The notes beneath the pieces are model-generated. The model did not search any database. It was given only the letters and a program-made list of their open reading frames with translations, and was not told where the DNA came from. 64,000 bases of DNA from assembly GCF_056712565.1 (NCBI RefSeq), contig NZ_CM160072.1; one strand, given 5' to 3'. Each line of letters opens with the position of its first letter. The first letter of the stretch is position 1. The translations under genes were made by a program, and so were the position numbers. Positions 13,812-34,960 of the stretch are shown here, piece by piece.

Positions 13812-14675
13812 ATGATCCGCAGTATGACCGCCTACGCCCGGCGTGAAATCAAGGGTGAATGGGGGAGCGCAACCTGGGAAATGCGCTCGGTAAACCAGCG
13901 TTATCTGGAAACTTACTTTCGTCTGCCGGAGCAGTTCCGTAGCCTTGAACCTGTCGTTCGCGAGCGTATTCGTTCTCGCCTGACGCGCGGTAAAGTGGAA
14001 TGTACCCTGCGCTATGAGCCAGATGTTAGCGCGCAAGGTGAGCTGATCCTCAACGAAAAACTGGCTAAACAGCTGGTAACTGCCGCGAACTGGGTAAAAA
14101 TGCAGAGCGACGAAGGAGAAATCAACCCGGTTGATATTCTACGCTGGCCGGGCGTGATGGCAGCCCAGGAGCAAGATCTCGACGCGATTGCAGCTGAAAT
14201 TCTCGCGGCGTTGGATGGCACCCTGGATGACTTTATCATCGCGCGCGAAACCGAAGGTCAGGCGCTGAAAGTGTTGATTGAGCAGCGTCTGGAAGGCGTC
14301 ACCGCCGAAGTGGTCAAAGTCCGCGCCCATATGCCGGAAATCCTGCAATGGCAGCGTGAGCGTCTGGTAGCGAAGCTGGAAGATGCTCAGGTGCAACTGG
14401 AAAACAACCGTCTGGAGCAGGAGTTGGTTCTGCTGGCACAACGAATTGACGTTGCCGAAGAACTGGACCGCCTCGAAGCGCATGTCAAAGAGACCTACAA
14501 CATTCTGAAGAAAAAAGAAGCGGTTGGCCGTCGTCTGGACTTTATGATGCAGGAGTTCAACCGCGAGTCGAACACTCTTGCTTCGAAATCTATCAATGCC
14601 GAAGTGACGAATTCTGCCATCGAGCTGAAAGTGTTGATTGAGCAGATGCGCGAGCAGATCCAGAATATCGAATAA
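13812..14675 (+). CDS. yicC: YicC-family protein (UPF0701; YicC/YloC-type endoribonuclease family)
   Basis: 287-aa ORF MIRSMTAYARREIKGEWGSATWEMRSVNQRYLETYFRLPEQFR..., recognised as YicC. Confidence 0.85.
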   Translation: MIRSMTAYARREIKGEWGSATWEMRSVNQRYLETYFRLPEQFRSLEPVVRERIRSRLTRGKVECTLRYEPDVSAQGELILNEKLAKQLVTAANWVKMQSDEGEINPVDILRWPGVMAAQEQDLDAIAAEILAALDGTLDDFIIARETEGQALKVLIEQRLEGVTAEVVKVRAHMPEILQWQRERLVAKLEDAQVQLENNRLEQELVLLAQRIDVAEELDRLEAHVKETYNILKKKEAVGRRLDFMMQEFNRESNTLASKSINAEVTNSAIELKVLIEQMREQIQNIE

Positions 14676-14782: not shown

Positions 14783-14806
14783 CGTGTACATAGAGGTGTA
14801 CATAAT
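14783..14806. repeat. left boundary repeat of integrative element (putative attL or integrase arm-type sites): cgtgtacatagaggtgtacataat
   Basis: Matches 34696..34719 at 22 of 24 positions in direct orientation; contains two 12-bp units with a TGTACA palindromic core; additional degenerate copies at 14814..14836. Confidence 0.6.
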
Positions 14807-14863
14807 GACTTTCATGTACATTGCTTTATGTACACACCCATATTCGATATTCAGGTATTCGCA

Positions 14864-16132
14864 ATGCCAAAACTCACAGATATGCAGATCCGCGCATGGA
14901 TAAAGGCGGGAGACAGATTTGATGGCAAGGCAGACGGCAACGGCCTTTATATTTGCTACCCCAAAAACTACACAGTCCCGTTCTGGCGATTCCGATATAA
15001 GCTCGCAGGAAAACAGCGGGCTATGGTTATCGGCTCTTACTCCGAACTGTCACTATCAAAAGCCAGAGAAATAGCAAAAGAGCTGTCAGCCAGAGTTGCT
15101 CTTGGCTATGACGTAGCAGCAGAAAAACAGGAACGAAAAGCTGAAGCACTGGCAAAAATGGAGGCTGAGAAAAACGCCATGCGCGTTTCAGATCTGGCCG
15201 CCGAATACTTCGAGCGACAGATACTTCCGAGATGGAAACATCCCGATATCCTTCGCCGGAGAATTGATAAGGATATTAACCCCTGCATTGGGCATATGAA
15301 GGTAGAGGACGTTAAGCCACGCCACATTGACGACATGTTGAAAGGTATCGTTGACCGAGGAGCACCAACGATAGCAACAGATGTATTACGCTGGACACGC
15401 CGTATCTTTGACTATGGGATAAAACGCCACGCTCTGGAGATAAACCCTTGTTCAGCGTTTGAAGTATCTGATGCTGGTGGTAAAGAGGTTTCCCGCGACC
15501 GTTGGCTAACTCGCGATGAGCTTATCAGGCTATTCGAGGCTATGCGCACCGCAAAAGGATTCAGCCGCCAGAACGAACTGACATTTAAGCTATTGCTGGC
15601 ACTATGCGTTCGTAAGATGGAGTTATGCGCCGCACGATGGGAAGAGTTTGATTTAGATGGTGCGGTATGGCATTTGCCGGAAGAACGCAGCAAAAACGGA
15701 GACCCTATTGATATACCTCTACCTTCTCCTGCCGTTGAATGGTTGAGAGAGCTACACACCTTTTCATGTAATAGCGCATGGGTGCTTCCAGCCAGGAAGA
15801 TGCAAAACAGAATGATCCCACATATTCAGGAAAGCACTTTACCCGTAGCACTGGCTAAGGTTCGCGCCGAAATGCCGGATGTGCCTAATTTCACGATTCA
15901 CGACTTCCGGCGTACCGCACGTACTCATTTAGCAGCATTGGGTGTTGATCCTGTCGTAGCGGAACGATGCCTCAATCATCGCATTAAGGGTGTGGAGGGG
16001 ATTTATAACCGCCATCAGTATTTTGATGAGCGTAAAGCTGCGCTGGCACAGTGGGCTGATCTGCTGGTGGCACTGGAAAGCGGGAAAGACTACAACGTAA
16101 CGCCATTCGATAAAGCCCGGAGGCAAATGTGA
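14864..16132 (+). CDS. int: tyrosine site-specific integrase, P4-type (N-terminal arm-binding domain plus catalytic domain)
   Basis: 422 aa from ATG 14864 (MPKLTDMQIRAWIKAGDRFDGKADGNGLYIC...WRFRYKLAGKQR); C-terminal R..HDFRRT...Y catalytic signature (HDFRRTARTHL, IYNRHQY). Confidence 0.85.
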   Translation: MPKLTDMQIRAWIKAGDRFDGKADGNGLYICYPKNYTVPFWRFRYKLAGKQRAMVIGSYSELSLSKAREIAKELSARVALGYDVAAEKQERKAEALAKMEAEKNAMRVSDLAAEYFERQILPRWKHPDILRRRIDKDINPCIGHMKVEDVKPRHIDDMLKGIVDRGAPTIATDVLRWTRRIFDYGIKRHALEINPCSAFEVSDAGGKEVSRDRWLTRDELIRLFEAMRTAKGFSRQNELTFKLLLALCVRKMELCAARWEEFDLDGAVWHLPEERSKNGDPIDIPLPSPAVEWLRELHTFSCNSAWVLPARKMQNRMIPHIQESTLPVALAKVRAEMPDVPNFTIHDFRRTARTHLAALGVDPVVAERCLNHRIKGVEGIYNRHQYFDERKAALAQWADLLVALESGKDYNVTPFDKARRQM

Positions 16133-20810: not shown

Positions 20811-21113
20811 ATGAAGAAGATTAAATTTACTGGCTTAAATGCCAGCGGACAGACTCACCCGAAAATCAGGATCGGGGATATTTTCCGGGATAAATATGGT
20901 GACAGCGTGGTTATTAATTCCGTGTATGAACGGCACATTACATACCGCCGCGCAGGGTACGACTATGACTGTGTGATGCCCGTTCATCAGTTCCGGCGTG
21001 ATTTTTCACTGGTATGTGCAGTACCACGCAGTAAGCCCACCAGTAAAGAGAAAGCACGGGCAAATATTCAGGTAATAAAGAACATGATTAACGCATTCAG
21101 GGGCAAGAAATGA
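20811..21113 (+). CDS. hypothetical protein (100 aa)
   Basis: ORF tightly packed between 85-aa ORF and replication gene (overlap ATGA at 21110). Confidence 0.45.
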   Translation: MKKIKFTGLNASGQTHPKIRIGDIFRDKYGDSVVINSVYERHITYRRAGYDYDCVMPVHQFRRDFSLVCAVPRSKPTSKEKARANIQVIKNMINAFRGKK

Positions 21114-23236
21114 AACGCGCACCGAATTTAAAGCACCAGCCGAAAGACAAAATGACGGAGGTGATTATCTTTGCGGGTAGTGATGCCTGGGCACATGCGA
21201 AAGAGTGGAGCGAATGGGCCGGAAAGCATATTGCGGCAGATGATACACATCCAGTTATTCTTGGACCGGAACAACTGGCGAGTCTGGCAGACACGCAAAT
21301 CATCGACAAAGGGCGCTATTACGTGCGCGTTTATCGTGCTGGTGAAATATCAGAGCAGCACCTTACACAGATAGCGACACTGCTTGCAGTGGCGGGTGTG
21401 AAGGAGGCGCGTTGCTACCGCAGCTTTGTTGATCAGCAGCCGGAGGACTGGACACCGCGCATGGCTGGACTGAAGGATGATGCGGAACGCGGTAACAGTC
21501 TGGTGATCAACCTTCCGGCGAAGACAAATTTCACCGGAAATTATGATGACGAATTAAAGCCTCGTGTTGAAAGTCGCGTCGATGGTGTTTTCTGGGTAAC
21601 GCCCAAAGTGGACAAGCAGTCAGGCGAAATTATCCGGCCTGAGACGTGGTTATGTTCTCCGCTTGAACTACTGGGAACAGGAACAATCGGCAAAGAGCAT
21701 TACCGCGTGATGCGCTGGAAAAAACCAGCAAACCATGAGGTCATTACAATGGCGGTCCCGTGCGGAGGCATTGGTGACCGTGACGGCTGGCGGTTGCTGA
21801 AAGACCACGGCCTTAACGTGACGACCAACGGCAAATACAGGGCTATCCTGGCTGACTGGATGCAGTTAAGCGGAAACCATGAGGAATGGCAGTTAAGCAC
21901 AACAACGGGGTGGCATTTTGGTGCGTACATCATGCCGGATGGTTCGGTCATTGGTGAATCAGAGAAACCCATCCTGTTTACCGGAAAAACTGCCGCTGTT
22001 AATGGCTATTCCGTGGCGGGAACAGCGGAGGGCTGGCGCGATACCGTGGCACGGCTGGCTGGTGGTAATCCGTCCATGATGCTGGGTGTGGCGGTATCGC
22101 TATCCGCACCATTAATCGGGCTGGTGGGTGCTGACGGCTTCGGGGTTCATCTTTTTGAGCAATCATCAGCAGGTAAAACCACCACACAGAACATTGCATC
22201 AAGTTTATGGGGAGAGCCGGACGCGCAACGGCTGACCTGGTACGGAACGGCGTTAGGTATCGCCAACGAGGCCGAAGCACATAATGACGGGCTGTTACCC
22301 CTGGATGAAATAGGCCAGGCCGGAAACGCGCGGGAGGTGTCCACGTCAGCCTATACGCTGTTTAACGGTTCCGGGAAATTACAGGGGGCGAAGGACGGCG
22401 GCAACAGGGAGATAAAACACTGGCGCACGGTGGCAATCAGCACCGGAGAAATGGACGTTGAAACATTCCTCAAAACGGAAGGGATAAAAATTAAAGCGGG
22501 GCAGCTTGTCCGTCTGCTTAACGTGCCGATGGAAAAGGCATCGCAGTTTCACGAATACAGCACCGGAAAGGCGCACGCAGACGCGTTAAAAGATGCCTGG
22601 ACAGAAAATCACGGGGCGGCAGGTCGTGAGTGGGTTAAATGGCTGGCAGGTCACCAGCAGGAGGCAAAGGACGCGGTAAGGGCATGTCGCGAGCGGTGGC
22701 GCAACCTGATACCGGAGAGCTACGGCGAGCAGGTTCACCGTGTGGGGGAAAGATTCGCCGTACTGGAGGCCGCGCTTGTGCTTTCCGGTCATGTTACAGG
22801 CTGGGATGTTCAGGCGTGCCGTGATGCAGTTCAGCATAACTTTAATGCCTGGGTGAAGGAATTCGGCACGGGCAACAGGGAATTTAAACAGATGGTTGAA
22901 CAGGCTGAGGCGTTTTTGTCGTCGTTCGGGTTCAGTCGATACCTTCCCTATCCAAACAGCGACGAGCGTGATTTACCGATTAAAGACCTTGCCGGATACA
23001 GAAAGGGGAGTATCAGAAACGAAGATGACGAGTTCCGTTTTTACACGTTCCCGCATGTGTTTGAGGGTGAGATAGCACAGGGATTTAATCCGTCTCACTT
23101 TGCCCGCGCGTTGAGTGCTGCCGGAATGCTGGAAGCGGGAGGCGACCGCCGTTACAAGAAAAAGGCGCTCGGCAGGATTGGCGGGAAGCAGCATATTTTT
23201 TACGTGCTGATGTTCCAGCCTGAAGCAGAAGATTAA
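21110..23236 (+). CDS. putative replication initiator: primase/helicase-like protein with P-loop motif (possibly DUF927-type)
   Basis: 708-aa ORF; P-loop-like FEQSSAGKTTTQ; followed immediately by iteron-like repeats and ssb. Confidence 0.55.
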   Translation: MKRAPNLKHQPKDKMTEVIIFAGSDAWAHAKEWSEWAGKHIAADDTHPVILGPEQLASLADTQIIDKGRYYVRVYRAGEISEQHLTQIATLLAVAGVKEARCYRSFVDQQPEDWTPRMAGLKDDAERGNSLVINLPAKTNFTGNYDDELKPRVESRVDGVFWVTPKVDKQSGEIIRPETWLCSPLELLGTGTIGKEHYRVMRWKKPANHEVITMAVPCGGIGDRDGWRLLKDHGLNVTTNGKYRAILADWMQLSGNHEEWQLSTTTGWHFGAYIMPDGSVIGESEKPILFTGKTAAVNGYSVAGTAEGWRDTVARLAGGNPSMMLGVAVSLSAPLIGLVGADGFGVHLFEQSSAGKTTTQNIASSLWGEPDAQRLTWYGTALGIANEAEAHNDGLLPLDEIGQAGNAREVSTSAYTLFNGSGKLQGAKDGGNREIKHWRTVAISTGEMDVETFLKTEGIKIKAGQLVRLLNVPMEKASQFHEYSTGKAHADALKDAWTENHGAAGREWVKWLAGHQQEAKDAVRACRERWRNLIPESYGEQVHRVGERFAVLEAALVLSGHVTGWDVQACRDAVQHNFNAWVKEFGTGNREFKQMVEQAEAFLSSFGFSRYLPYPNSDERDLPIKDLAGYRKGSIRNEDDEFRFYTFPHVFEGEIAQGFNPSHFARALSAAGMLEAGGDRRYKKKALGRIGGKQHIFYVLMFQPEAED

Positions 23237-23260
23237 CTTCCCTGTGTGAGGTAAAAAGTT

Positions 23261-23383
23261 GCGGGTTATGCGGGTTATCCTGTGCATAAGTTAATTAACT
23301 GCATGATTAAAAAGGAAATCAATAACCCGCACGTAACCCGCAAAACGGCAGTTATAACCCGCAAATGTGCGATTGTAACCCGC
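23261..23383. repeat. iteron-like cluster 1: two direct GCGGGTTAT copies (23261..23278) plus four inverted (A/G)TAACCCGC copies (23322..23383); candidate origin
   Basis: Read directly from sequence; between the replication protein gene and ssb. Confidence 0.7.
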
Positions 23384-23446
23384 AAAATTTCACTGTAAGA
23401 GTGTAAACAAGCGTAACTATCACGTTAAAACCGGAGAACAAACAGC

Positions 23447-23869
23447 ATGACGGCGCAAATATCAGCTTACGGGCGGCTGGTGGCTGACCCGCAGTTAAAG
23501 ACCACCAGCAAGGGCACACAAATGGCGATGGCGAGTATGGCGGTCCCCCTTCCATGCAATCAGGCAGATGACGGAACGGCGACGATGTGGTTATCCGTCC
23601 TGGCGTTTGGCAGACAGGCCGACGCACTGGCAAAACACCACAAAGGCGAACTGGTGAGCGTGGCGGGTAACATGCAGGTAAGCCAGTGGACAGGCCAGAA
23701 CGGCGAAACGCGGCAGGGCTGGCAGGTTATCGCAGACAGCGTAATCAGTGCGAGAACGGCGCGACCGGGCGGCAAAAAAGGCCAGCAAGGGCAGGCTACT
23801 GACGCACTGAACAGGGCAAAACAACAGGCGGGTAACGACGATCCGTACGGGGACGGGATACCGTTTTAA
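23447..23869 (+). CDS. ssb: single-stranded DNA-binding protein (SSB)
   Basis: 140-aa ORF with OB-fold-like N-terminus, Gly/Gln-rich linker and acidic C-terminal tip ...DDPYGDGIPF typical of SSB. Confidence 0.75.
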   Translation: MTAQISAYGRLVADPQLKTTSKGTQMAMASMAVPLPCNQADDGTATMWLSVLAFGRQADALAKHHKGELVSVAGNMQVSQWTGQNGETRQGWQVIADSVISARTARPGGKKGQQGQATDALNRAKQQAGNDDPYGDGIPF

Positions 23870-23905
23870 TTCACAACAGCGAACAGAGTAATTACAGGGG
23901 AAGGC

Positions 23906-24403
23906 ATGACAAAGCTGACCATAAACAGAAAACCGAAGGGCATTTACGGCACGCCGCAGAAAACAGCACAGGCGGCGCAGCAGCAGAATAAAACCACATC
24001 GGCGCATAAAGTGATGCCAGATAACCAGAACACACAGCAGAAGCTCACAGGAGCAACACCGCGGCGGCGTATGACCAAACAGCAGCGTAAAAACCGCAGA
24101 CGCGTTAACCGTCTTATTGAGCTATGGCCTGAATTATTCAGCCCGGAATCACCTAAGCCGCTTAAGGTGGGGATATTTGACGACCTGATACAGGATATTG
24201 CCGCGAGAGGTATTTCACTCGGACAGGGAACACTACGCGCAACGCTGGCGCGTTATGTGCAGACTCCGCGCTATTACCGCGCCCTGGTAGCTGGTGGCGC
24301 GCGTTACGACCTGAAAGGCCAGCCGTGCGGCGAGGTAACACCACTACAACAGACGCACGCAGGAAAACTACTGGAGGAGATGAATGGAAATAGTAAGAAA
24401 TGA
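23906..24403 (+). CDS. FinO/ProQ-domain RNA-binding protein
   Basis: 165-aa ORF; [82 protein letters not shown] matches the FinO/ProQ N-terminal domain pattern (PLKIGI...LR.AL..YT.S..YL....GA.R.DL.G...G.V). Confidence 0.7.
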
Positions 24404-24800
24404 TCACGCACATGGTCGCCGTGCAGGTGATCACATTGTGGATGAAATGGCGGAAAAACAAAGAGTTGACATTATTGTCAGTGTCACAGTCGAGAGCGCG
24501 AAGCGCCAAAATAAGCGTATAAATGATCGTTCAGATGTACATGGTGTGATCACTCGTTTACGCCAGACTTTTGTAACTCGTGAAGAGATGATTGAAGCTA
24601 TTGACCAGCATACAGCATGTATCAGCGTCAGGGATATACCGGAGGTCATTGCTAACTACTTCATGATCACCAGACGCCTTTACCGGAGAAAAGACAAGAG
24701 CACGGTTAACCGTCTCCTGATGTCTGATATTCGCGAATACCTGCAAGAAAGGGGCTATGTGAATCCACCAGAACAGCGCTACGGAAGAGTCGGAGGCTAA
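24384..24800 (+). CDS. hypothetical protein (138 aa), start overlaps FinO-like gene
   Basis: ORF with 20-bp overlap with upstream gene; no family recognised. Confidence 0.4.
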
Positions 24801-25166
24801 CTAAAACCCTGTACCGAAGAGCGGCGGCGCGATGGGGTGAAGTAATGCAGTTGGGAAACTGATAAGGAACGGTATTACATATCAATGCGACGACTGGAAT
24901 GTTCCAGGAAGGCACAGAGGCCACCGAAGCAACCGGATAATTTAGAAGACCTGAAACGGTCGCTTAAACGCACTGAAAAAGAAATGGGGATAGATGGGAT
25001 CGGGAAATCAGTATGGCGTAACTACCAGAAGTAAGCACAGAGCCGGAGCAATCCGGCTTTTTTTGGGGCTGAAATCAATCAATCTGTTTTTGTGATAGAA
25101 ATATGTTTATCTACCACTTTTTCAGATCAATAATGTGCATAGTTTAGTCAGTAAGAGGAAATTGCT

Positions 25167-25373
25167 GTGAATTGTATTAACGACCTGAACACAGGCGATG
25201 TCAGAGGTGGTTCCGTTCATCTGGATGCACAGACCGTGATGCGCATTAAGCAGTACAGAATCGACCATGTGAACAATCACCCTGATCAGCCATTACCAGG
25301 CGTGGCGCAGATTGTCAGACATGCCGTAAACGCCTGGCTTAATCAGAATGGTTTTGCATCGGGGGGTGAGTAA
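25167..25373 (+). CDS. small hypothetical protein (68 aa) upstream of large-protein operon
   Basis: ORF only; GTG/ATG start ambiguous. Confidence 0.3.
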   Translation: MNCINDLNTGDVRGGSVHLDAQTVMRIKQYRIDHVNNHPDQPLPGVAQIVRHAVNAWLNQNGFASGGE

Positions 25374-25469
25374 TGAATCGCTGGTACAGCATCAAAGCAG
25401 AGGGACGCCAATGTTATCTAACTCAGGTTTTATGAATTCTGACTCCCGATTCAAAATAGGAGGTTACTA

Positions 25470-28001
25470 ATGCCAGTCGTACCAACAGTATCCGGACGTC
25501 AGGTTGAGAGCCGTGGAGTTCAGTCAGCAGGCTTGCAGACGTTTTCTCAGCCAGGTATTAGTGATGCTTTTGTTCGTGCAGGAGCAGAGGCAATTGATGT
25601 TCTGGGTCAGGCAAAACAGCGTGCCAATATTGCCTTGGTTCAGGAGGCATCCCTTAAACTCAGTCAGACAGGCAGTGATCTGCTGAATAATCCTGAAACA
25701 GGATTGCTTAACCTGAAAGGGAAAAATGCTATTGGAAAAGGCCATGAGTATACGCAGCAGTTTGATGCTCAGGTCGAACAACTGGCTATGTCGCTGCCGG
25801 ATGAACAGGCCCGTAATGCTTTCATGCAGCAGGCACAGCAGCAGCGCATTCAGTTCACTACGCAGGCCGGGCGGTACGAGATCGGGCAAATAAATGCCTA
25901 CGAAGAAGGCCAGTTTCAGGCTACGCTGCTGAACAATGGTAAAAATGCCGCAGCATTGTATGGCGACAACGCCGCATACGTATTGGCTAATAAGCAAACT
26001 TTCCAGCAAATTGAGGAGTACGGCATTGCGCATGGCTGGAGCGACGAGCAGATTCGGGCCAGGAAAATCGAGTTTAAAGAAGCAACAGCAAAAGCAACTG
26101 CTCAAAATGCTATTGGAGCAAACTATCTTCAGGTAAGACAGCAAAACGGCGAGTTAAGCGATACTGCTGCTGGAGCTCGCCGTGCTGTAGCAGATAGTGG
26201 ATCTTCCGATCGTACCCGCGGTATACGCAACAATAACCCCGGCAATCTTGAATACAGCAAAACTAATCCGTGGGTTGGGCAGACTGGTGATGATGGTCGC
26301 TTTGCTAAATTCGAAACACCTGAACACGGTATTCGTGCATTAGGGCGGAACCTGATGTCGTATCAGCGGCAGGGTATTGATACCGTCAGCGAGATAATTA
26401 ATCGCTGGGCACCGCCTACTGATAAAAATGACACTATGTCGTATATCAAAGCAGTGTGCGAACAACTTGGCGTTTCTGCTGATGATCCTATAGATGCATC
26501 TAATCCGGATACCCTGAAGGCGCTTTGTGCAGCCATTATCCATCATGAAAACGGTAGCCAGCCATACAGTGATCAGCAGTTAACTGCAGGTGTTAGTGCT
26601 GCGCTGGGGCTTTCTCAGCTACCGACAAAAAATAAACGTTATACCGGTGTAGCCTGGTTCGATGCTTTAAGTGAATCGGATCAGGCCAGCGTGTTGCGAC
26701 AGACTGATGCACTAGCCAGACAACAGCAGGCTGAATATAAAACGATGCTCGACAGCCAGGTTCGCGATGCGACAGCTGCGTATATGCGTGGCGTTGAATT
26801 TCCTAACCCACCAGGTGAGGCTGATTTTATTGCAGCTTATGGCGTCAGAGAAGGAAACCTGCGATATACCGAGTTCAGAAATACGCAGATCGCCGGACAG
26901 TATATAGGCTCTTTCCGCAACATGCCGACAAGCAGCATTACCGCATATGTTGAGCAATTGCGCCCGGATACTGGTGAAACAGGGGAGGGGTATGCGTCTC
27001 GTGCGAAGTTATTCGACCGGGTATCGGCGGCAGCCACGAAGGTAATAACCCAGAGGCAGAATAATCCGTTTAGTGCAGCGGTGGAAATCGGAGCCTATAA
27101 GCCGATCACCAGCAACAACCCTGACGACATCACTGCCGAGGTGGCTAACCGTTTCTCGTCGCAGGAAAGCTTACGCGCGTTGGGAATTAATGCCCCAATC
27201 CTCAACAGTGAAGAGGCGGCTGCGCTGGCACAGCAGGTGCGCGGCACTCAAAACGTTGACCAGACAATTAAACTGTTGCAGAGCATGGGGGAAAAGCTAC
27301 CTGCGCCAGCAATACGGCAGGTGGCATCTGTAATTGCTCCGAACAGTGCAGCAACAGCCTATTCTGCGCTGCTGCTGGGCACGCCGGATAATCAGTACGA
27401 TAACACCAGGCCGTCGATCCCATATAGTCAGTTCATCGGGTATAAGCCGACGATGAACAAGTACGACGTTGCAAAGGTTATTCTTTCCGGTGACCAACTA
27501 CTGAATCCGACGAAGGCTATGAAGAATGCGGGCATAACTCCGGTACAGTTGCCGAGCGAAGATAAAATGAAGCGCGCTTTCGACGAACAGGTTGGTAATG
27601 CATTTGCCCGTAACCCAGAGACGCGCCAGATCAGTTATAGCCTTTTCAAAGCCGCTTACGCAGGAATCGCTTATCAGTCTGGTAATGCGTCTATGACGAG
27701 CACAGATGCGGTTAACTCCGATGTGGCGGAGAAAGCTGCGCAGTACGCAACAGGCGGTGTATACAAGAGATTTAATGGTGGTGATGTTGTAATGCCTTTC
27801 GGCATGGATGAATCCACTTTCAAAGATCGCTATACCACATCAGCGAAACAAGCACTGAAAGATGCCGGACTTAACGTAAATGCAGTGTCAAACTTCACAC
27901 CAGTTAATATCGGCAATAACCGGTATCGGCTGGTAAATGGTAGCGGACGCTGGGCAACAGATCCCAGAACCAATGAAGCTATTGTCGTGAGGGTTGAATA
28001 A
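25470..28001 (+). CDS. large hypothetical protein A (843 aa), Q/A-rich, with conserved central segment GIRNNNPGNLEYSKTNPWVGQ...WAPPTDKNDT...HHENG
   Basis: Strong SD (aggagg) 8 nt upstream of ATG; stop overlaps next start (TAATG). Composition resembles phage internal virion / ejection or polyvalent proteins; no family confidently assigned. Confidence 0.6.
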   Translation: MPVVPTVSGRQVESRGVQSAGLQTFSQPGISDAFVRAGAEAIDVLGQAKQRANIALVQEASLKLSQTGSDLLNNPETGLLNLKGKNAIGKGHEYTQQFDAQVEQLAMSLPDEQARNAFMQQAQQQRIQFTTQAGRYEIGQINAYEEGQFQATLLNNGKNAAALYGDNAAYVLANKQTFQQIEEYGIAHGWSDEQIRARKIEFKEATAKATAQNAIGANYLQVRQQNGELSDTAAGARRAVADSGSSDRTRGIRNNNPGNLEYSKTNPWVGQTGDDGRFAKFETPEHGIRALGRNLMSYQRQGIDTVSEIINRWAPPTDKNDTMSYIKAVCEQLGVSADDPIDASNPDTLKALCAAIIHHENGSQPYSDQQLTAGVSAALGLSQLPTKNKRYTGVAWFDALSESDQASVLRQTDALARQQQAEYKTMLDSQVRDATAAYMRGVEFPNPPGEADFIAAYGVREGNLRYTEFRNTQIAGQYIGSFRNMPTSSITAYVEQLRPDTGETGEGYASRAKLFDRVSAAATKVITQRQNNPFSAAVEIGAYKPITSNNPDDITAEVANRFSSQESLRALGINAPILNSEEAAALAQQVRGTQNVDQTIKLLQSMGEKLPAPAIRQVASVIAPNSAATAYSALLLGTPDNQYDNTRPSIPYSQFIGYKPTMNKYDVAKVILSGDQLLNPTKAMKNAGITPVQLPSEDKMKRAFDEQVGNAFARNPETRQISYSLFKAAYAGIAYQSGNASMTSTDAVNSDVAEKAAQYATGGVYKRFNGGDVVMPFGMDESTFKDRYTTSAKQALKDAGLNVNAVSNFTPVNIGNNRYRLVNGSGRWATDPRTNEAIVVRVE

Positions 28002-30061
28002 TGTCTGATGTTTTTTCTTTGGCTCCAGAAGGTCAGGCATGGATTGACGACAAAACAGTTGCCAACCCAGCAAGGCCAGAAGACTACGATCCGACTCCCT
28101 TCCAGGGTTCAGGTACTGCACTTTTGAGCGGCGTGGCGGAGGGGGCTCTCGGTCTCGCGCAGTCTGCCGTCGGATTCAGCAAGCGCCTGATTAGCGATCC
28201 GGCATTTACCGCAGACGTGGCACCGACTGTTAATATTTTTCGGGAGATGTTCCCTGATGCTGACAAAACACTGAATGATACATACGACACGATCGGAAAA
28301 CAGTTACAGGATGCCCGCAGCTATGTGAAGCCTGATGCAGGCAGTCAGGGAATGGCGGCTGAGGTATTAAATGAGCTTGGTAAATTTGTTCCTGCAATCG
28401 GAACAACTATGTTTGGCGGTCCCCTCATCGGCGCTGCTACAGCTTTCAGTTCTACGTATGAGCAGTCCTATCAGGATTTTAAAGGGAAGGGAGTAGACGA
28501 GGCTACGGCGCGTAACCTGGCAACGCAGCAAAGCCTTTTCAATGCTGTGGGTATGGCCTTACCCGCTGCCGTCGGCACCACACTGGCAACGCGCATTGCC
28601 TCAGGTGTGGCAATCAACACCGGATTCGGTGGACTGAACCGTTACTCTGTCGGCGCAACACTGGAGGAAAAAGGCTACACGGAGATGGCAAAACAGTACC
28701 GGGTATTTGACGGTCAGGCGATGTTAGTCGATGCCGTTTTAGGCGGGGTCTTTGGTGGCGTTCATCACCTGACTACCCATAATAACCATGATGGTACAGA
28801 GTCGAACATTTCTGCAGAAGAAATAAAATCAACTTTTGGTGAACATTATCAGCAATCTCCTGATGGTAACATTGAGTCAATGGTTCGTGATTTATCTGAT
28901 TCAGGAGTAATAGAACTTATTAATGAACCAGCAATAAAAAATAGTGATGGAGAAATACTTCTGAATAAAGGTCATGTGACAGTAGCTTCTGGAAAAGAAC
29001 CAATAATAAGAATAAATATTAATGGATTAAAAGATCATGAAGAACTGTTAGAAACCCTTCATCACGAGGCGCTTCATCTTGAGCAGCGCCATTACCCTGA
29101 CTGGAAGGCCAGAAAGCTAGCTAATGCTGTACTTAAATCTGCAAACAAGCATTCTGACTATCCTGAATTTGCATATGGGATGTCACAATATTATGAATAT
29201 AAGAAAAGGGGTGAGTACCCTGAAACATATCCTGAGTGGTTGTACGCTGAAGAAGTTGCCGCACATGCAGTAAATCCATCTCTAAAGACAAGCGTTTCAT
29301 CATGGGAAAAAATTATTTCAGGTTTTAAAGCCTATATATTCAGATACAGTGGTATTCAGGTTGGAACCGTTACACCTGAGCAGTTACGGTTACTCGTAAG
29401 TATGCGTCTTCGCAATATGAAACTGGAAGCCGCAGTCGAAAAAGTTTTTGGTATCCGGGCAAGGGAAAGAATAAAACCAAGCGATATTGATGCAGCCCAC
29501 ATTTTGAATGAGGGGCTTCATTACGATATTGAATCGTCACCAGTGCTTCACACCAGCAATGAGAGCATCAACAGCCATGTTGACGCCATGGATGAAGCAT
29601 ACAGGCAACTTAATGATGGTCAGCCTGTAAATGTTGGGGGGATGGCGCGAGGGCTTGATGGTCCATTGCGATCAGATATATCTGATACTTACCAAGAGCA
29701 ATACCATGAAATACAAAAGGTTTTTGAAGAAAATGGTGTCAGATATGAAACATCATCAGAGCCAATTAGTGAATCGCCTGTCCCTCGTGCTGAAAGTGCT
29801 TTCTCATCGGCTGGTGAACACAGAGGGGACGTCAGCGTTGATCCAGATACAGGGCAGGTTCTCTCATCCAACAGCTATGACCTTATGGCTGCCAGAGACA
29901 TGGCTGTTGCCAATCCTGAGCTGACTATAGCTCACCCGGAAACCGGAAACCCGACAAAACTTTCTGATCTCCTGGCTGAGTTGGATGAACAGATTAAGAC
30001 AGTCCAGAACGAATCGAAGGTTTATTCTGTAGCGGCAGCGTGCTTCTTGAGGAACCCATAA
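28001..30061 (+). CDS. large hypothetical protein B (686 aa) with glycine-zipper-like hydrophobic N-terminal region and HExxH zinc-metallopeptidase motif (LHHEALHLEQRH)
   Basis: Translationally coupled on both sides; HEALH motif encoded within a conspicuously AT-rich segment (about 28790..29350). Confidence 0.6.
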   Translation: MSDVFSLAPEGQAWIDDKTVANPARPEDYDPTPFQGSGTALLSGVAEGALGLAQSAVGFSKRLISDPAFTADVAPTVNIFREMFPDADKTLNDTYDTIGKQLQDARSYVKPDAGSQGMAAEVLNELGKFVPAIGTTMFGGPLIGAATAFSSTYEQSYQDFKGKGVDEATARNLATQQSLFNAVGMALPAAVGTTLATRIASGVAINTGFGGLNRYSVGATLEEKGYTEMAKQYRVFDGQAMLVDAVLGGVFGGVHHLTTHNNHDGTESNISAEEIKSTFGEHYQQSPDGNIESMVRDLSDSGVIELINEPAIKNSDGEILLNKGHVTVASGKEPIIRININGLKDHEELLETLHHEALHLEQRHYPDWKARKLANAVLKSANKHSDYPEFAYGMSQYYEYKKRGEYPETYPEWLYAEEVAAHAVNPSLKTSVSSWEKIISGFKAYIFRYSGIQVGTVTPEQLRLLVSMRLRNMKLEAAVEKVFGIRARERIKPSDIDAAHILNEGLHYDIESSPVLHTSNESINSHVDAMDEAYRQLNDGQPVNVGGMARGLDGPLRSDISDTYQEQYHEIQKVFEENGVRYETSSEPISESPVPRAESAFSSAGEHRGDVSVDPDTGQVLSSNSYDLMAARDMAVANPELTIAHPETGNPTKLSDLLAELDEQIKTVQNESKVYSVAAACFLRNP

Positions 30062-32817
30062 TGAAACAGGCATGTGTTGAAGCTATTGCGCAGACACTTG
30101 GTCGCCAGCCAAAGGCTGATGAGCTGAAAAATATCGAAGATCGTATCAAAGAAGCAGTGCAACATGTGCACAGAAAGAATGCAAAAGAAGGCAAAAGTGG
30201 TATTCCTGATGCTCAAACATACATGGATGCTGCAGAACTGGTACGCCAGCGTGTGGTTCATGATGTGTACAAGAAAAGACAGCGTGTTGCCCAGAATGCG
30301 ATCGCCATCAGTAAAATTACTGACACTCTCGATGCTAACATCCCGCCTGATCAGCAGACACCTGTTAATTTGCAGCAGTTTATTTTTGCTGGCCGACGAT
30401 CGAGAGACAAAGCTGATATCTCCGTTGCTTCTGCTGAAGAGCTTGCAATTGGGGCATATCAGGACTGGTCCCGTCAGCTCAGTGCTGAACTTCTAAAAGC
30501 AGGTGATGACGTCCGCAAATTCTTCGAGCAGAGCAGGGCGCTTGGAGAGCAGCGGTTTCGGAGTGTATTCGACAGGCAGGCGGCAAAGTCTGCACAACTC
30601 CAGATCCTGAAAGAAATTTATGGCGAAGATACCGGGAATCCCCTGGCGAAGAAAATTGCACAGATTTGGAAGGATGTAACAGGCCGTGTTCGTCATGAGA
30701 TGAACGACAACGGCTTTGACATAGGCCTGCGAGAAGACTGGCATACGCCATATGTGGATGATGCTGACCTTATTCGCAATGCCGGGCGCGAAGAATGGCT
30801 GGCATCGTTACCAGTGGCAGAGCAAGCTACAGCACGTCTTTCAGGTCGCCAGCCACCGATTGAGTTTGCCCGCCAGAAATGGGTTGATGACGCTTACAAC
30901 ACGCAGGATCGCAGCAATTACGTTAATCCTGACGGCAGCATTATGAATGACGTCGAGTACCGTCAGGCACTGGAAGCGATCTTTGAAACGAAGGCCACTG
31001 ATGGGGCAAACAAAATTGAGCCCGGTACATTTATGGGAGCCGGAGGAATAAAGAGCCGTGGTTCTCAGCACAGGGTGATGGCGTTCAAGGATGCGCAGTC
31101 ACACTTCGCCTATATGGAGCGATACACTCAGCAGCCGCTGGTGGGGGTGATGATGTCGCACCTGCAATCATCATCCAGGGATTTGGGCGTCGTTAAAGCC
31201 TTTGGTCCGGACGCCGAAAGAAACTTTTCCCTGGTACTGGATCGCATCTATAAGCGCGCAGTAACAGGCGGGAAACGCAAAAAAGAAATGGAGGATGAGG
31301 CCAAATTAGTAGCCCGTATGTTCAACTCAATGGCTGGCCTAAATGGTGTCGCTTCATCGAGTGTGTTCTCTTCAGCTGTTGGTGGTCTGCGTAACCTGAT
31401 GACCAGCGCCATGCTTGGCACCAGCGTACTGACAGCAACCAGCGACCAGGCAATTATGCGGGCAAATGCGCAGGCGCTGGGCTTTACCCGTGGTGGAATG
31501 CGGCTTTCCGTTAACACTATCAAAAACCTGTTTAGTGGAGATGCCAAAAAGGCGAATGCTGAACTCGGTCTGCTGGTGGATTCACATGCTGCTGTGGTTT
31601 CGAAAATGGGCGGGTTTGACTTGTCTCGCGGCATAACTGGCTGGTTCGCAGAGAAGACACTGAAGTGGTCCGGGCTGATCGCTATGGACCGCGCAAACAA
31701 AGCGTCGTTTGGTCTCCTGATGTACAAAAACATTGGCGAGCTGACCAGAAAATTTAAGACGCTGGACGATATGAAAGGAACCGATAAAACCATTCTGGCT
31801 AACAAGGGATGGAGCAATGAGGACTGGGCCATCATGGCAGCGGCAGAACTCAGGCCGATGACTACTGCCGGGCATATGGGGATGACGCCAGACGCGATTT
31901 ACGCTGTGCCCGATAACGTAATCGCCGACATTATGGCAGACCGTATTACCCGGATTCGTGCCGGGAGTGAAAAGGCACTGGCAGCACTTGGAGATCTCCC
32001 TCCAGAACGCCTGAAACGGATGAAAGAAGCATTCGACGCTGAGGCTGAGCAGACCATCACGCGCATGATTCGTAATGCACGCGCTGAAGCAGCCCATAAA
32101 TTGCTGGGAATTACGCACGGTGAGATGACCAATGCTGTGACCACCGCTACGGGTATTGATACATATGCCCGTGATGATGCTGGCGAGTTAATGAAGAGCT
32201 TCATGCTCTTCAAAACAACCCCATTTGCTGGATTTCGGCAACTTGTTAACAGAACACGGGATTTGGACACCGTTCCGGCCATTAAATTTCTGGCCTCATA
32301 TATCGGGGGAACAACTCTTGCTGGTATGTTTGCGATCCAGATGAACAGTTTGTTAAATGGTAATGATCCGCTGGATATGACAAAACCAACCACATGGGTT
32401 CAGGCTTTACTGAAAGGTGGTTCGTTCGGTATCTACGGTGATTTTATTTTCCAGGACCATACGCAATATGGCTCCAGCATCGGTGCCACTATGGGTGGCC
32501 CTGTGTTGAGCTTTGCAGAGCAGTTAACAAAATTACTGATTACTAACCCACAGAAGGCTCTACAGGGTGAAGAAACATCATTCGGTGCCGATGCACTGAA
32601 AACAGCCCGCATGATCACCCCATTCGCAAACCTGTGGTATGCGAAAGCGATAACCAATCACCTGATATTGCAACAACTTCAGGAGATGGCAAACCCTGGT
32701 TACAATGATCGAGTAAGGGACCGCGCGCAACGGGAGTTCGACATAACGAGTTGGTGGGAACCGGGTGCTATTGCGCCACGTAGAGCACCGGATTTTGGAA
32801 AGGCGGTAGGGGAATGA
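30061..32817 (+). CDS. large hypothetical protein C (about 918 aa)
   Basis: ATG at 30061 overlaps stop of protein B (TAATG); ORF track offers an upstream GTG at 30040. Stop overlaps start of the next small ORF (ATGA). Confidence 0.6.
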   Translation: MKQACVEAIAQTLGRQPKADELKNIEDRIKEAVQHVHRKNAKEGKSGIPDAQTYMDAAELVRQRVVHDVYKKRQRVAQNAIAISKITDTLDANIPPDQQTPVNLQQFIFAGRRSRDKADISVASAEELAIGAYQDWSRQLSAELLKAGDDVRKFFEQSRALGEQRFRSVFDRQAAKSAQLQILKEIYGEDTGNPLAKKIAQIWKDVTGRVRHEMNDNGFDIGLREDWHTPYVDDADLIRNAGREEWLASLPVAEQATARLSGRQPPIEFARQKWVDDAYNTQDRSNYVNPDGSIMNDVEYRQALEAIFETKATDGANKIEPGTFMGAGGIKSRGSQHRVMAFKDAQSHFAYMERYTQQPLVGVMMSHLQSSSRDLGVVKAFGPDAERNFSLVLDRIYKRAVTGGKRKKEMEDEAKLVARMFNSMAGLNGVASSSVFSSAVGGLRNLMTSAMLGTSVLTATSDQAIMRANAQALGFTRGGMRLSVNTIKNLFSGDAKKANAELGLLVDSHAAVVSKMGGFDLSRGITGWFAEKTLKWSGLIAMDRANKASFGLLMYKNIGELTRKFKTLDDMKGTDKTILANKGWSNEDWAIMAAAELRPMTTAGHMGMTPDAIYAVPDNVIADIMADRITRIRAGSEKALAALGDLPPERLKRMKEAFDAEAEQTITRMIRNARAEAAHKLLGITHGEMTNAVTTATGIDTYARDDAGELMKSFMLFKTTPFAGFRQLVNRTRDLDTVPAIKFLASYIGGTTLAGMFAIQMNSLLNGNDPLDMTKPTTWVQALLKGGSFGIYGDFIFQDHTQYGSSIGATMGGPVLSFAEQLTKLLITNPQKALQGEETSFGADALKTARMITPFANLWYAKAITNHLILQQLQEMANPGYNDRVRDRAQREFDITSWWEPGAIAPRRAPDFGKAVGE

Positions 32818-33155
32818 AAAAGTTAAATACACCAACCAAAAGAGTTGGGGGGCTTCTGATTGTCATTGGAATTATATTTATACTTGCATCTATAATAGAA
32901 ATATCAAGTAATGAGTTTGCTATTTCTGATAGTCCATATTATCGATCGCTAAATGCATATGATATTATTTTTATGTATTTAGAGCGAATTACAGATACTT
33001 TCATCATGACTCTAACATTTCAAACATGGAGTAGCCGTTTCAGTATATTAATGTTAGTAGGGTTTTGTTTATTTATTGTTGGTGTTCTTATTTCATATTT
33101 TTACGATGCTGGAATTGGCAGGGTTGTTAAGTGGATAAGAACGGGTAATTGGTGA
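32814..33155 (+). CDS. small hydrophobic protein (113 aa, two predicted TM segments), AT-rich gene
   Basis: Start ATG overlaps stop of protein C; hydrophobic stretches GLLIVIGIIFILASII and FSILMLVGFCLFIVGVLISYF; markedly lower GC than flanks. Confidence 0.5.
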   Translation: MKKLNTPTKRVGGLLIVIGIIFILASIIEISSNEFAISDSPYYRSLNAYDIIFMYLERITDTFIMTLTFQTWSSRFSILMLVGFCLFIVGVLISYFYDAGIGRVVKWIRTGNW

Positions 33156-33237
33156 TTATAAGCAAGCTATTGGTTTCATTGTTTATATCGTTGTCGGAAC
33201 TTTTTCAACTGACAGCAATCATAGCCGGGCTTGAATC

Positions 33238-33528
33238 GTGGTGGGGATTGCACTGGATAATTGCAGCCCCATTGCTTTCATCGTGAGCTATATTCCATTT
33301 GTTGGAGCGATTGTTGGTATGGTTGGCGCTATGGATGTATGGTGTTGGGAGTGGTGGCAGGCTGGCCTTCTATTCTTTGGTGGATCATCTTTGCTATTGT
33401 CAGCGGTGGAATGTCATCATTTTTCGAATGGCTATCATTCAGAAAAAGAGCGTGACATGTCACAGGCCGCTTTCGCGGCCTTGTTTTTAACGAATGCCAC
33501 CGCCGCCCGGGCGGGAATCCGCAGATAA
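33238..33528 (+). CDS. possible small membrane protein (96 aa); reading frame uncertain (three overlapping ORFs)
   Basis: Hydrophobic segments; alternative frames 33261..33455 and 33299..33490 also open. Confidence 0.3.
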   Translation: MVGIALDNCSPIAFIVSYIPFVGAIVGMVGAMDVWCWEWWQAGLLFFGGSSLLLSAVECHHFSNGYHSEKERDMSQAAFAALFLTNATAARAGIRR

Positions 33529-34156
33529 AAAAGCCCGCTGCACGGTTTTATTAATACTTATACCATTAGGATTGATCCTTCAATGGACAATCCTTCCATC
33601 GTGTGGCCAGCCATTCATATTCTTTGTCTTTTCTTCAGTACCGGCTTTGCATCTTCTACACCCTGAAAGATGTCGTTTTATGGTGTATCTGATGATTTAT
33701 TCCCTAACAATAGATATTCGAAAAATTAATCAGTTAAAACAATTATTTGGATAATTTCAGGTAAAAACTATCTTAATCTTCTGGTGGATCTCAATGCGCC
33801 GTGACGGTATCGGGATTAAGGGCGTGGATATTCGCGATATATGCCGCTACACCCCTCAACAGTAATAGATATGCGCTTTTCACGCTCTCCTTTCACTGCT
33901 GAGAACGGCAACAACGTGCCACAGGAACGCGCTGTAATCGATTCTGACGCACTTAATTGCGTTGGGTAATGGTTTGCCAGCCTGTGGGGGTAACTCTGTT
34001 TTATGAGGCTTTGGCTATAGTGCAAAAATGCACTTTGTCTTGCCTCTCAATTTGATGAGACTGGAACGACAACAGGACAGACCACCAGCAACAGTTACCG
34101 TATTCAGCCGTTCTGTGGCACCAGTGGAACTATCCACCCCTGCTTTCAGCAATGTG

Positions 34157-34311
34157 TTTGCGGGTTATTTTGGGGCGTTTGCGGGTTATTTGGGATGTTT
34201 TGCGGGTTATGCGATGCTTGAATAATGAACAGTGCATTTTGCAACATATTGATACTAAAGAACAAAAAATAGTTAGCACACTAAGATAACCCGGTAACCC
34301 GCATAACCCGC
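34157..34311. repeat. iteron-like cluster 2: three direct TTTGCGGGTTAT copies at 21-bp spacing (34157..34210) plus three contiguous inverted TAACCCG(C/G) copies (34286..34311)
   Basis: Read directly; same 9-mer as cluster 1, about 11 kb away near the right end of the element. Confidence 0.7.
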
Positions 34312-34695
34312 ACTGTTTTGTATATATATACGAAAAATTGCATTCAGGAGGGGGGATCGAAATCCCTACAACCCATTGCTTATGGGACCGCCGCCTCGTC
34401 AAATTTTTACACCCGCGAAATAAAAAATACTTCACGCTGGTGGGCATGATGCTGATATGAGAGGCTTCCATAACGCCACCATTCGAAACTATGCAAATCT
34501 GCATAGAAAAGGGGATGCCTGATACAATACCCTCGCCCGATAAAATCACACCGATAAACTCATCTGCCACGAGTAGAAAGAGCGAACGAACCCGATACGC
34601 AGTAATGCTGGTCGGGTCCAGCTTTTTAAGGCGGCTGTAGATATCAGGCCATCCGTGATCATCCACCAGCGTAATTGCTGAACGCTTTAAAAAAA

Positions 34696-34719
34696 CGTGT
34701 ACATAAGGGTGTACATAAT
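34696..34719. repeat. right boundary repeat of integrative element (putative attR or arm-type sites): cgtgtacataagggtgtacataat
   Basis: 22 of 24 identity with 14783..14806, direct orientation. Confidence 0.6.
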
Positions 34720-34960
34720 CAAAAACCGCATTAGAAAGAAACCAGATACAATGCGGCATTGAAGCCAACACTCTACAAACAGATCCAGAACATTGAATAA
34801 CTCGTAACGCCAATTCTTCCTTTTCAGCCTTCACAAATGCCGCCCACTCAAACAGAGCGGCATTTTTCCTCCCCGCAACATTCAATTCTGTTTTGCGTGC
34901 CTGCTCCAGATTTTGCGATGTTTTTTTGCCCAGCGCAGTGAGAACGTGAGATACTCACAA

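Follow-up and report, generated by a model that had tools for sequence, protein, structure and literature searches.

In replication origins of Staphylococcus aureus pathogenicity islands (SaPIs) and phage-inducible chromosomal islands (PICIs), an AT-rich region is flanked on either side by two or more iterons, with the two sides in opposite orientations; these origins lie immediately after rep, and a winged-helix domain at the C terminus of the Rep protein reads the iterons (PMC9371898, PMC6092414). Here, we analyzed a 64,000-nucleotide stretch of Escherichia coli DNA (NCBI RefSeq assembly GCF_056712565.1, contig NZ_CM160072.1; the whole stretch is referred to as the window). A PICI-type satellite in the window carries two clusters of one short repeat, the first directly downstream of a rep gene and the second near the right end of the island, beside a cos site. 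We propose that the two clusters are probably two modules of one composite Rep-dependent origin that was split by a rearrangement, and that both modules are Rep targets, as judged from sequence comparisons.

Separated iteron sites are known in other replicons. Replication of satellite P4 requires both ori and crr in cis. In plasmid R6K (gamma, alpha, and beta) and plasmid P1 (incC and incA), one initiator binds iterons at sites far apart on a single molecule, and these sites loop or pair; iteron plasmids use second-site iteron arrays for copy control. The original prediction for the window, which was made by a model from the sequence alone, compared the two clusters to P4 ori and a distant crr-like site. 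Neither a two-module nor a split origin was described in the papers on PICIs and capsid-forming PICIs (cf-PICIs) that we searched, and searches for cf-PICI origins returned nothing relevant.

Results

Anatomy of the two repeat clusters

The repeat word was the 8- to 9-bp sequence GCGGGTTA(T). All eight copies of the 9-mer GCGGGTTAT in the window were located within the two clusters, compared to an expectation of 0.54 copies and a maximum of 2 copies in 100 shuffles. Similarly, 11 of the 12 copies of the 8-mer GCGGGTTA were in the clusters and 1 was in the other 63.7 kb. Isolated GCGGGTTA copies formed a background of 0.05 per kb across 204 kb of E. coli DNA that we retrieved for comparison. 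These counts and shuffles, together with the coordinates, bore out the direct-plus-inverted architecture originally described for both clusters.

Cluster 1 (positions 23261 to 23383) began 25 bp past the rep stop codon and ended 64 bp ahead of ssb. Its module, which we call module 1, started with two abutting plus-strand copies of GCGGGTTAT (23261 to 23278, with starts at 23261 and 23270). These were followed by a 43-bp spacer with 30% GC (23279 to 23321), a candidate melting site based on the SaPI/PICI model (PMC9371898, PMC6092414), and by four minus-strand copies spaced 11, 21, and 21 bp apart (23322 to 23383, with starts at 23323, 23334, 23355, and 23376). Module 2, in cluster 2 (34160 to 34311), contained three plus-strand copies exactly 21 bp apart (34160 to 34210, with starts at 34160, 34181, and 34202), a 76-bp AT-rich spacer with 32% GC (34211 to 34286) that was partly conserved with the module 2 of two relatives described below, Sp7 and ST361, and three abutting minus-strand copies (34287 to 34311, with starts at 34287, 34295, and 34304). 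The first inverted copy, at 34287, was CCGGGTTA and carried a single mismatch. When cluster 2 was read as its reverse complement, the architecture of cluster 1 was reproduced: abutting copies, AT-rich spacer, and phased copies. The AT-rich spacers, the mismatch, and this mirror relationship had not been part of the original prediction.

The outer flanks of the two modules were also related. Module 1 was preceded by CTGTGTGAGGTAAAAAGTT (23242 to 23260, plus strand), an alternating purine-pyrimidine tract with an A-run, and a similar motif was found in the same place in relatives with other iterons. Module 2 was followed by GTTTTG-(TA)5-CGAAAAATTG (34315 to 34340, plus strand), which formed the junction with the cos module and was invariant 3' of module 2 in islands with adjacent modules and in islands with split modules, whatever their iteron. 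The outer flank of module 1 (CTGTGTGAGGTAAAAA) mirrored this (TA)5 flank, which makes the origin as a whole, in its adjacent form, an imperfect palindrome of about 350 bp.

Each cluster alone corresponded to the published definition of a SaPI/PICI origin, and module 1 was also located downstream of rep, as that definition specifies. Thus, the assignment of cluster 1 as an origin module directly 3' of rep, 25 bp past its stop codon and in the SaPI/PICI layout, was upheld. An Rfam scan of the window placed no RNA family at either cluster, and terminator and σ70 promoter scans around both modules gave no hit at (TA)5 or within either spacer. GC skew was positive throughout the co-oriented genes of the island and switched at neither module and hence was uninformative.

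Rep type and iteron specificity

The rep gene (21110 to 23236, plus strand) encodes a 708-amino-acid (708-aa) protein, which we classified using Pfam, PDB, and NCBIfam matches. DUF927 was the single Pfam domain (E = 3.6e-46). Rep also matched PDB entry 8tch, a "Pathogenicity island protein" (E = 1.7e-14), PDB entry 5dgk, the SCCmec helicase Cch (E = 9e-4), and the NCBIfam model Cch1 (E = 9.6e-10, below the curated cutoff). The original prediction had likened the arrangement to that of P4, in which a primase-helicase binds the repeats. However, BLASTP revealed no similarity between Rep and P4 alpha (E = 0.11), and TIGR01613, the P4-family primase model, matched alpha and the Rep of EcCICFT073 but not the window Rep. 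Given the DUF927, 8tch, and 5dgk matches and the absence of an alpha or TIGR01613 match, we reject an alpha-type primase-helicase and classify Rep as a self-loading helicase that groups with SaPI Rep and Cch, a kind with DUF927 and an MCM-like AAA+ architecture.

The part of Rep that tracked the iteron word was the C-terminal domain encoded by codons 601 to 708 (22910 to 23233, plus strand). The window Rep and the Reps of Escherichia albertii and OSUCMP42NDM, whose iteron is GGGACAAG, were 95% identical over residues 169 to 600 but only 37% identical over residues 601 to 708. Among Reps of the GCGGGTTA type, identity was 94 to 98% in the core and 86 to 94% in the C-terminal domain. The iteron word therefore co-varied with the last ~108 residues of Rep, which suggests that specificity maps to the Rep C terminus. 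An AlphaFold model of this domain, based on an 11-sequence alignment, was of low confidence (predicted local distance difference test score, 50.7) and left a winged helix unconfirmed.

This co-variation supports the original idea that the repeats are iterons of the island replication protein. As the word also co-varied between the two halves in the relatives examined below, cluster 2 appears to share the specificity of cluster 1 rather than to be a chance or degenerate copy. Binding by a different island, helper, or host protein, such as a regulator or a small terminase, would be in keeping with the closeness of module 2 to cos and with the orphan copies of module 2 in islands that have other Reps. 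However, we found this idea scarcely credible: the repeat word changed in step with the C-terminal domain of Rep, whereas the remainder of the protein and the flank at cos stayed constant, module 1 was exactly at the SaPI/PICI origin position, and the phiP27 cos lacked such repeats. The fallback in the original prediction, binding of a regulator or packaging factor, was likewise disfavored by the co-variation with Rep, yet cluster 2 does abut cos and does occur as an orphan.

Relatives with adjacent modules

Both modules were found side by side directly 3' of rep in 12 relatives. The E. coli loci were Sakai Sp7, ST361, TKEC21-17, ECCHD184, FELIX_MS533, and GCUET01, and six to seven loci or species in other genera were found with the Rep protein. 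In the case of Sp7, a cf-PICI of the EcCIEDL933 type, the homologues of both clusters were located right after the DUF927 gene (L002, 14560 to 14877). The first half of the adjacent layout consisted of two abutting plus-strand iterons, an AT-rich spacer, and four minus-strand iterons at 11, 21, and 21 bp. The second half consisted of one more minus-strand iteron, two plus-strand iterons 21 bp apart, an AT-rich spacer, and two or three abutting minus-strand iterons. The layout ended with the motif GTTTTGTwTATATATACGAAAA, which was followed by a ribosome-binding site (RBS) and the next gene.

The adjacent relatives kept this geometry, with arms spaced 9 bp and 11/21/21 bp, and used six iteron words: GCGGGTTA, GTGGGTTA, GTTGGTTC, GGGAyAAG, GGGACrAC/GAGACAAC, and yyGGTTCA. 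The word was lineage specific and was identical between both modules in every adjacent relative. A motif scan of related islands, which had been suggested as a check on the original prediction, thus recovered modules with the same word in adjacent relatives and also in the split relatives described in the next section.

The GTTTTG-(TA)5-CGAAAA motif, which followed module 2 invariantly whatever the iteron, bears on a second alternative. Module 2 could mainly be a Rep-controlled regulatory or packaging-coupling element, with its abutting iterons overlapping a (TA)5 tract that would serve as a promoter-like or unwinding element. Where the modules were adjacent, the motif was located 15 to 25 bp ahead of an RBS and start codon, before the ssb operon; in split islands, it adjoined cos, and in the window it pointed through cos and attP toward int. 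However, the σ70 scan showed no promoter at (TA)5 and no -35 match, a full origin layout with two arms and a spacer would be superfluous for an operator, and cos works without module 2 elsewhere (L029 and phiP27). We therefore consider a mainly regulatory or packaging-coupling role quite unlikely.

Split islands and census of E. coli genomes

In 10 intact split islands, module 1 was followed directly by ssb, and module 2 was located 2.2 to 10.8 kb downstream at the right end. The split islands with GCGGGTTA were those of the window, UMNF18, EC416, 042, and APEC37, and those with GGGACAAG were from E. albertii, OSUCMP42NDM, MB51, LH13-b, and EF7-18-51. The iterons of the two modules matched in all 10 islands, which occupied five attachment (att) sites, and the DNA between the modules varied from ssb-ProQ-PerC alone to a full capsid module or, in the window, ejection-type genes. 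A comparison of split and adjacent copies of module 2 showed that the spacers were homologous too and that the sequences diverged exactly past TATATATACGAAAAATTG. When diverged copies of module 2 were aligned, the iteron columns were 95 to 98% identical, whereas the other columns were 68 to 75% identical. Two of these islands, EC416 (L014, 1 to 17189) and 042 (L016, 5323 to 22325), were cf-PICIs whose insertion split the terL gene of a resident prophage in two; the prophages hosting them have HNH and a P27-family terS.

The census was based on 5,426 complete E. coli genomes. About 141 to 145 genomes had the adjacent GCGGGTTA origin. The split form, with module 2 located 2 to 11 kb away, was found in ~100 genomes, and ~94 of these also had a GCGGGTTA module 2 beside cos. 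Class counts were obtained from an evenly spaced sample of 60 rows from the 377 matching genomes. A right-end module 2 was accompanied by a second place (module 1) in 15 of the 60 and stood on its own in 8; the adjacent form accounted for 23, cos only for 13, and module 1 only for 1. Examination of the lone module-1-only case revealed a window-type island at tRNA-Gly whose right end had been removed by IS1, and no intact module-1-only island was found in the sampled census or among the islands that we examined. Both modules, whether adjacent or split, were thus present in every intact DUF927-Rep island examined.

Orphan copies and the hitch-hiking alternative

Several observations weigh against a split composite origin. 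First, the split islands represented few independent lineages, and all of the GGGACAAG cases were at one att site. Second, a right-end GCGGGTTA module 2 and cos, with six of six iterons perfect, were present in three genomes without a cognate Rep. Specifically, BH100N had a primase-family Rep and CTGTCTACC iterons; GF66.1 (L027, 4140 to 4440) had a cf-PICI with a primase-like Rep and an origin of TGTTCACC repeats; and STEC306 had a truncated rep. In the sampled census, such orphans made up about one-third of right-end GCGGGTTA modules. Because perfect orphan copies exist, intact iterons are no proof of current use. Third, ECCHD184 and FELIX_MS533 had a full adjacent origin with the word GGGACrAC and, in addition, a third module at the right end whose word differed at positions 8 and 9. 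Fourth, the layout of module 1 is by itself that of a canonical origin, which would allow module 2 to be redundant. Module 2 travels with the cos end by recombination, and part of the pattern is modular hitch-hiking.

The orphan copies differed very little from the copies in matched islands that shared their att sites and thus looked like recent right-end exchanges. We take TGTTCACC, the origin word of GF66.1, to be the P4 type-1 repeat word. The Rep tails of ECCHD184 and FELIX_MS533 were 88% identical to the GGGACAAG type. In ECCHD184, an insertion of ~10 kb (L018, 14140 to 24196) between the origin and the right-end module interrupted ssb. The insertion contained genes for a class I S-adenosylmethionine-dependent DNA methyltransferase, a DEAD/DEAH helicase, a GIY-YIG nuclease, and an ISL3 transposase, and it is a candidate defense cassette.

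The strongest form of this objection is that module 2 is only a relic that hitch-hiked with the cos end, that its iterons match because the donor shared the Rep type, and that module 1 is the whole functional origin. This explanation accounts for the perfect-iteron orphans in islands with an unrelated or decayed rep, for the rampant mosaicism of these islands (e.g., L023 and L025 had the same right end and different replication modules at one att site), and for the canonical PICI origin layout of module 1 alone. On the other hand, no gross mismatch was found in the 10 intact split islands with a DUF927 Rep, which fell into two specificity classes; intact module-1-only islands were not found, though cos ends without module 2 exist; iterons were better conserved than spacers between diverged copies; and the second module of the adjacent form was conserved across genera. 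On balance, we regard a mere relic as unlikely. A split composite origin remains our preferred reading. A continuing role of module 2 in it is supported by the conservation of the second module across genera, by the co-variation of the iteron word between the modules and with the Rep tail, by the higher identity of iteron columns than of spacers, and by our failure to find intact module-1-only islands.

The cos site beside module 2

A cos site of the phiP27 type was located at 34347 to 34428 on the plus strand. It was 85.9% identical to the annotated phiP27 cos-site (E = 1e-13), and the match included CGCC(C)GCC(C)C-GTCAAATTTTTAC. The stretch to the right of cluster 2 had also been considered tRNA-like, which we rejected because it corresponded to this cos. 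In the capsid-forming relatives, the island had its own cos upstream of terS, and the phiP27-type cos at the right end was an extra one.

The cq9 island (L029) contained a cos module that started with ...ACGAAAAATTGCATTCAGG and lacked module 2; the left edge of this cos module was ACGAAAAATTG. Since a cos module without module 2 exists, the point at which module 2 and cos were fused was probably the short sequence ACGAAAAATTG that they share, after the (TA)5 tract. We also rejected a reading of module 2 as an inherent component of cos, as neither the phiP27 cos nor the cq9 island cos has module 2.

A cos site in an island without a terminase points to a phiP27-like phage or to the P27-type terminase of a cf-PICI as the packaging helper. 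Tandem cos-like sequences ~350 bp apart were found at the right end of some cf-PICIs, including APEC37 (L023, 14170 to 14650) and L027 (13170 to 13420), in addition to the cos upstream of terS.

The island and its cargo

The clusters are part of a PICI-type satellite that is inserted in the 3' end of yicC, between yicC and dinD, and the island region was 100% identical to that of strain M21170. Alignment to the empty K-12 site fixed the ends of the island at two direct copies of the 21-bp sequence CAGATyCAGAAyATyGAATAA, the 3' end of yicC, and gave an island size of 20.1 kb. The attL core was CAGATCCAGAATATCGAATAA (14655 to 14675, plus strand), where the yicC 3' end is rebuilt by the island, and the attR core was CAGATCCAGAACATTGAATAA (34780 to 34800, plus strand). 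The yicC-dinD site is among the listed PICI attachment sites.

The tyrosine integrase gene (14864 to 16132, plus strand) was located via the RefSeq annotation of the identical region in M21170. The window contained five exact copies of GTGTACATA, all of them just inside the two island ends, with three near attL (14784 to 14835) and two near attR (34697 to 34717, plus strand). Based on this placement, the GTGTACATA repeats are probably arm-type sites of the integrase.

All of the island genes point rightward. The first part of the island encodes the integrase, an AlpA-type helix-turn-helix (HTH) protein, Rha, AntA/B, Bro-N, an Icd-like protein, and a DUF4222 protein. The second part contains the gene for the 708-aa DUF927 protein, ssb (23447 to 23869, plus strand, by annotation), which is the first gene past module 1, a ProQ/FinO gene, a frameshifted PerC gene, and three large genes. 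No capsid, terminase, tail, or lysis genes were identified in the window island via annotation or PHROG. Thus, the island has the context of a PICI, namely, an integrase, a specific att site that prophages do not use, unidirectional rightward transcription, and no lysis or tail genes. It is not a cf-PICI, as it has no capsid, portal, protease, HNH, TerS, or TerL of its own; the capsid and terminase gene set was present in relatives L002, L003, L014, L016, and L023.

The cargo between the modules consisted of three genes of the podovirus internal-virion or ejection type (25470 to 32817, plus strand), which encode proteins of 843, 686, and 918 aa and matched PHROG 992, 1145, and 684. These genes were ~78% identical to epsilon15 at the nucleotide level, and the block ends were 90 to 96% identical to phiV10-like E. 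coli phages. Carriage of ejection proteins by a satellite without capsid, terminase, and tail genes seems unusual, and we found no relevant literature on satellites with epsilon15-type genes. One of the three genes had a transglycosylase region, and the same cargo was also present in an island at tRNA-Gly that had a different integrase (L026).

RefSeq annotates a 234-aa minus-strand open reading frame over cluster 2 (34130 to 34834), which we rejected as a probably spurious gene because it runs across three sites, namely, the attR core, cos, and module 2. Its start was outside the island, it had no PHROG hit, and the homologous DNA was unannotated in most genomes. A 70-bp stretch between cos and attR (34558 to 34628) was 83% identical to part of rlfB (rapB) of P1 and P7. 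In the flanking chromosome, outside the island, the Rfam scan identified a JUMPstart element (5312 to 5350, minus strand) and tRNA-Sec (selC; 60580 to 60674).

Discussion

The window island shares much with the SaPI/PICI replicon: homology of its Rep to SaPI Rep and Cch, an origin 25 bp after the rep stop codon, converging iterons, and a specificity that tracks the Rep C terminus. It also shares the int, AlpA-type HTH, Icd-like, and PerC genes, rightward transcription, and a listed att site. It differs in having two mirror modules instead of one, 10.8 kb apart, with the second fused to cos. The EcCIEDL933/Sp7 cf-PICI (bioRxiv 10.1101/2022.09.08.507074) has the same Rep type (94% identity in the core and 86% in the C-terminal domain), the word GCGGGTTA, and homologous modules. 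In Sp7, however, the modules are adjacent and cos is upstream of terS, whereas the window island lacks capsid and terminase genes, carries ejection-type genes, and has module 2 by a phiP27-type cos.

The comparison with P4 held in part. As in P4, a region directly 3' of the replicase gene in the window island shares an 8-bp repeat with a second region that is kilobases distant, and the crr units of P4 start with two repeats 9 bp apart that are followed by inverted copies. The replicase family did not agree, as alpha is a primase that belongs to TIGR01613, and neither did the roles assigned to the clusters. In the P4 record, crr is directly 3' of alpha and ori is 4.7 kb away, with the same 8-bp repeats; by position, module 1 of the window therefore corresponds to crr and not to ori. 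In addition, crr consists of two direct 120-bp repeats and is not a mirror-image module, whereas cluster 2 is a complete origin-like module. Because Rep is not of the alpha type, P4 ori and crr provide a functional analogy and not a membership.

R6K and P1 resemble the window island in having iterons for one initiator at distant sites on one molecule. Their initiators are winged-helix proteins of the RepA/Pi type that recruit host DnaB, whereas the initiator of the window island is predicted to be the helicase itself, and its second site has full origin anatomy. The identical iterons at a second site in cis raise the possibility that module 2 is a negative copy-control locus, acting through Rep titration or handcuffing of module 1, as in P1 incA and the R6K iterons. 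However, Rep is a helicase-type and not a RepA-type initiator, the arms of module 2 converge on an AT-rich spacer instead of forming a plain array, and a satellite that amplifies after induction would have little use for copy limits. Module 2 thus does not look like a P1 incA-type element, and a copy-control function seems very unlikely.

Our model for a composite origin is as follows. The C-terminal ~108 residues of Rep would read the iteron GCGGGTTA(T), and the origin of the DUF927-Rep family would consist of two mirror modules, each with an abutting arm and a 21-bp-phased arm converging on an AT-rich spacer. In the window lineage, module 2 would have been relocated to the right end and joined to a phiP27-type cos at ACGAAAAATTG, which placed ~10.8 kb of cargo between the halves and ~9.1 kb along the remaining arc of the excised circle. 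After induction, the Rep C-terminal domain would bind both modules, Rep would oligomerize on either side of each AT-rich spacer and melt it, and Rep would then load itself as the replicative helicase. The modules could serve as two initiation sites or could be bridged by Rep into a single looped complex, in the manner of P4 alpha at ori and crr. Rep binding, spacer melting, and any contribution of module 2 to replication of the window island are what we infer from the arrangement and conservation of these sites.

A bolder extension of this model, which we put forward as a speculation with little chance of being correct, is that the mirror halves act at a distance and so leave a slot for cargo, and that module 2 and cos form a portable replication-plus-packaging end. 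An island that acquires this end, even if its own rep is unrelated or dead, could then be replicated in trans by a DUF927 Rep from a co-resident satellite and packaged by a P27-type terminase, and the perfect orphan iterons would be the footprint of this process. If true, satellites would be exploiting satellites.

If module 2 proves dispensable, our finding shrinks to an example of shuffled satellite ends. PICI and SaPI origins have been described as a single iteron/AT-rich/iteron unit by rep, whereas enterobacterial islands with a DUF927 Rep appear to have a conserved two-module mirror origin whose iteron specificity swaps together with a Rep C-terminal cassette of ~108 residues. As a natural experiment, the split islands could show whether both modules are needed by a self-loading helicase and whether the modules communicate through DNA looping, which is the P4 ori/crr question posed in an unrelated replicase family. 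The patterns described here also provide practical rules for annotating the origins and cos sites of satellites and for predicting incompatibility or cross-talk between co-resident satellites.

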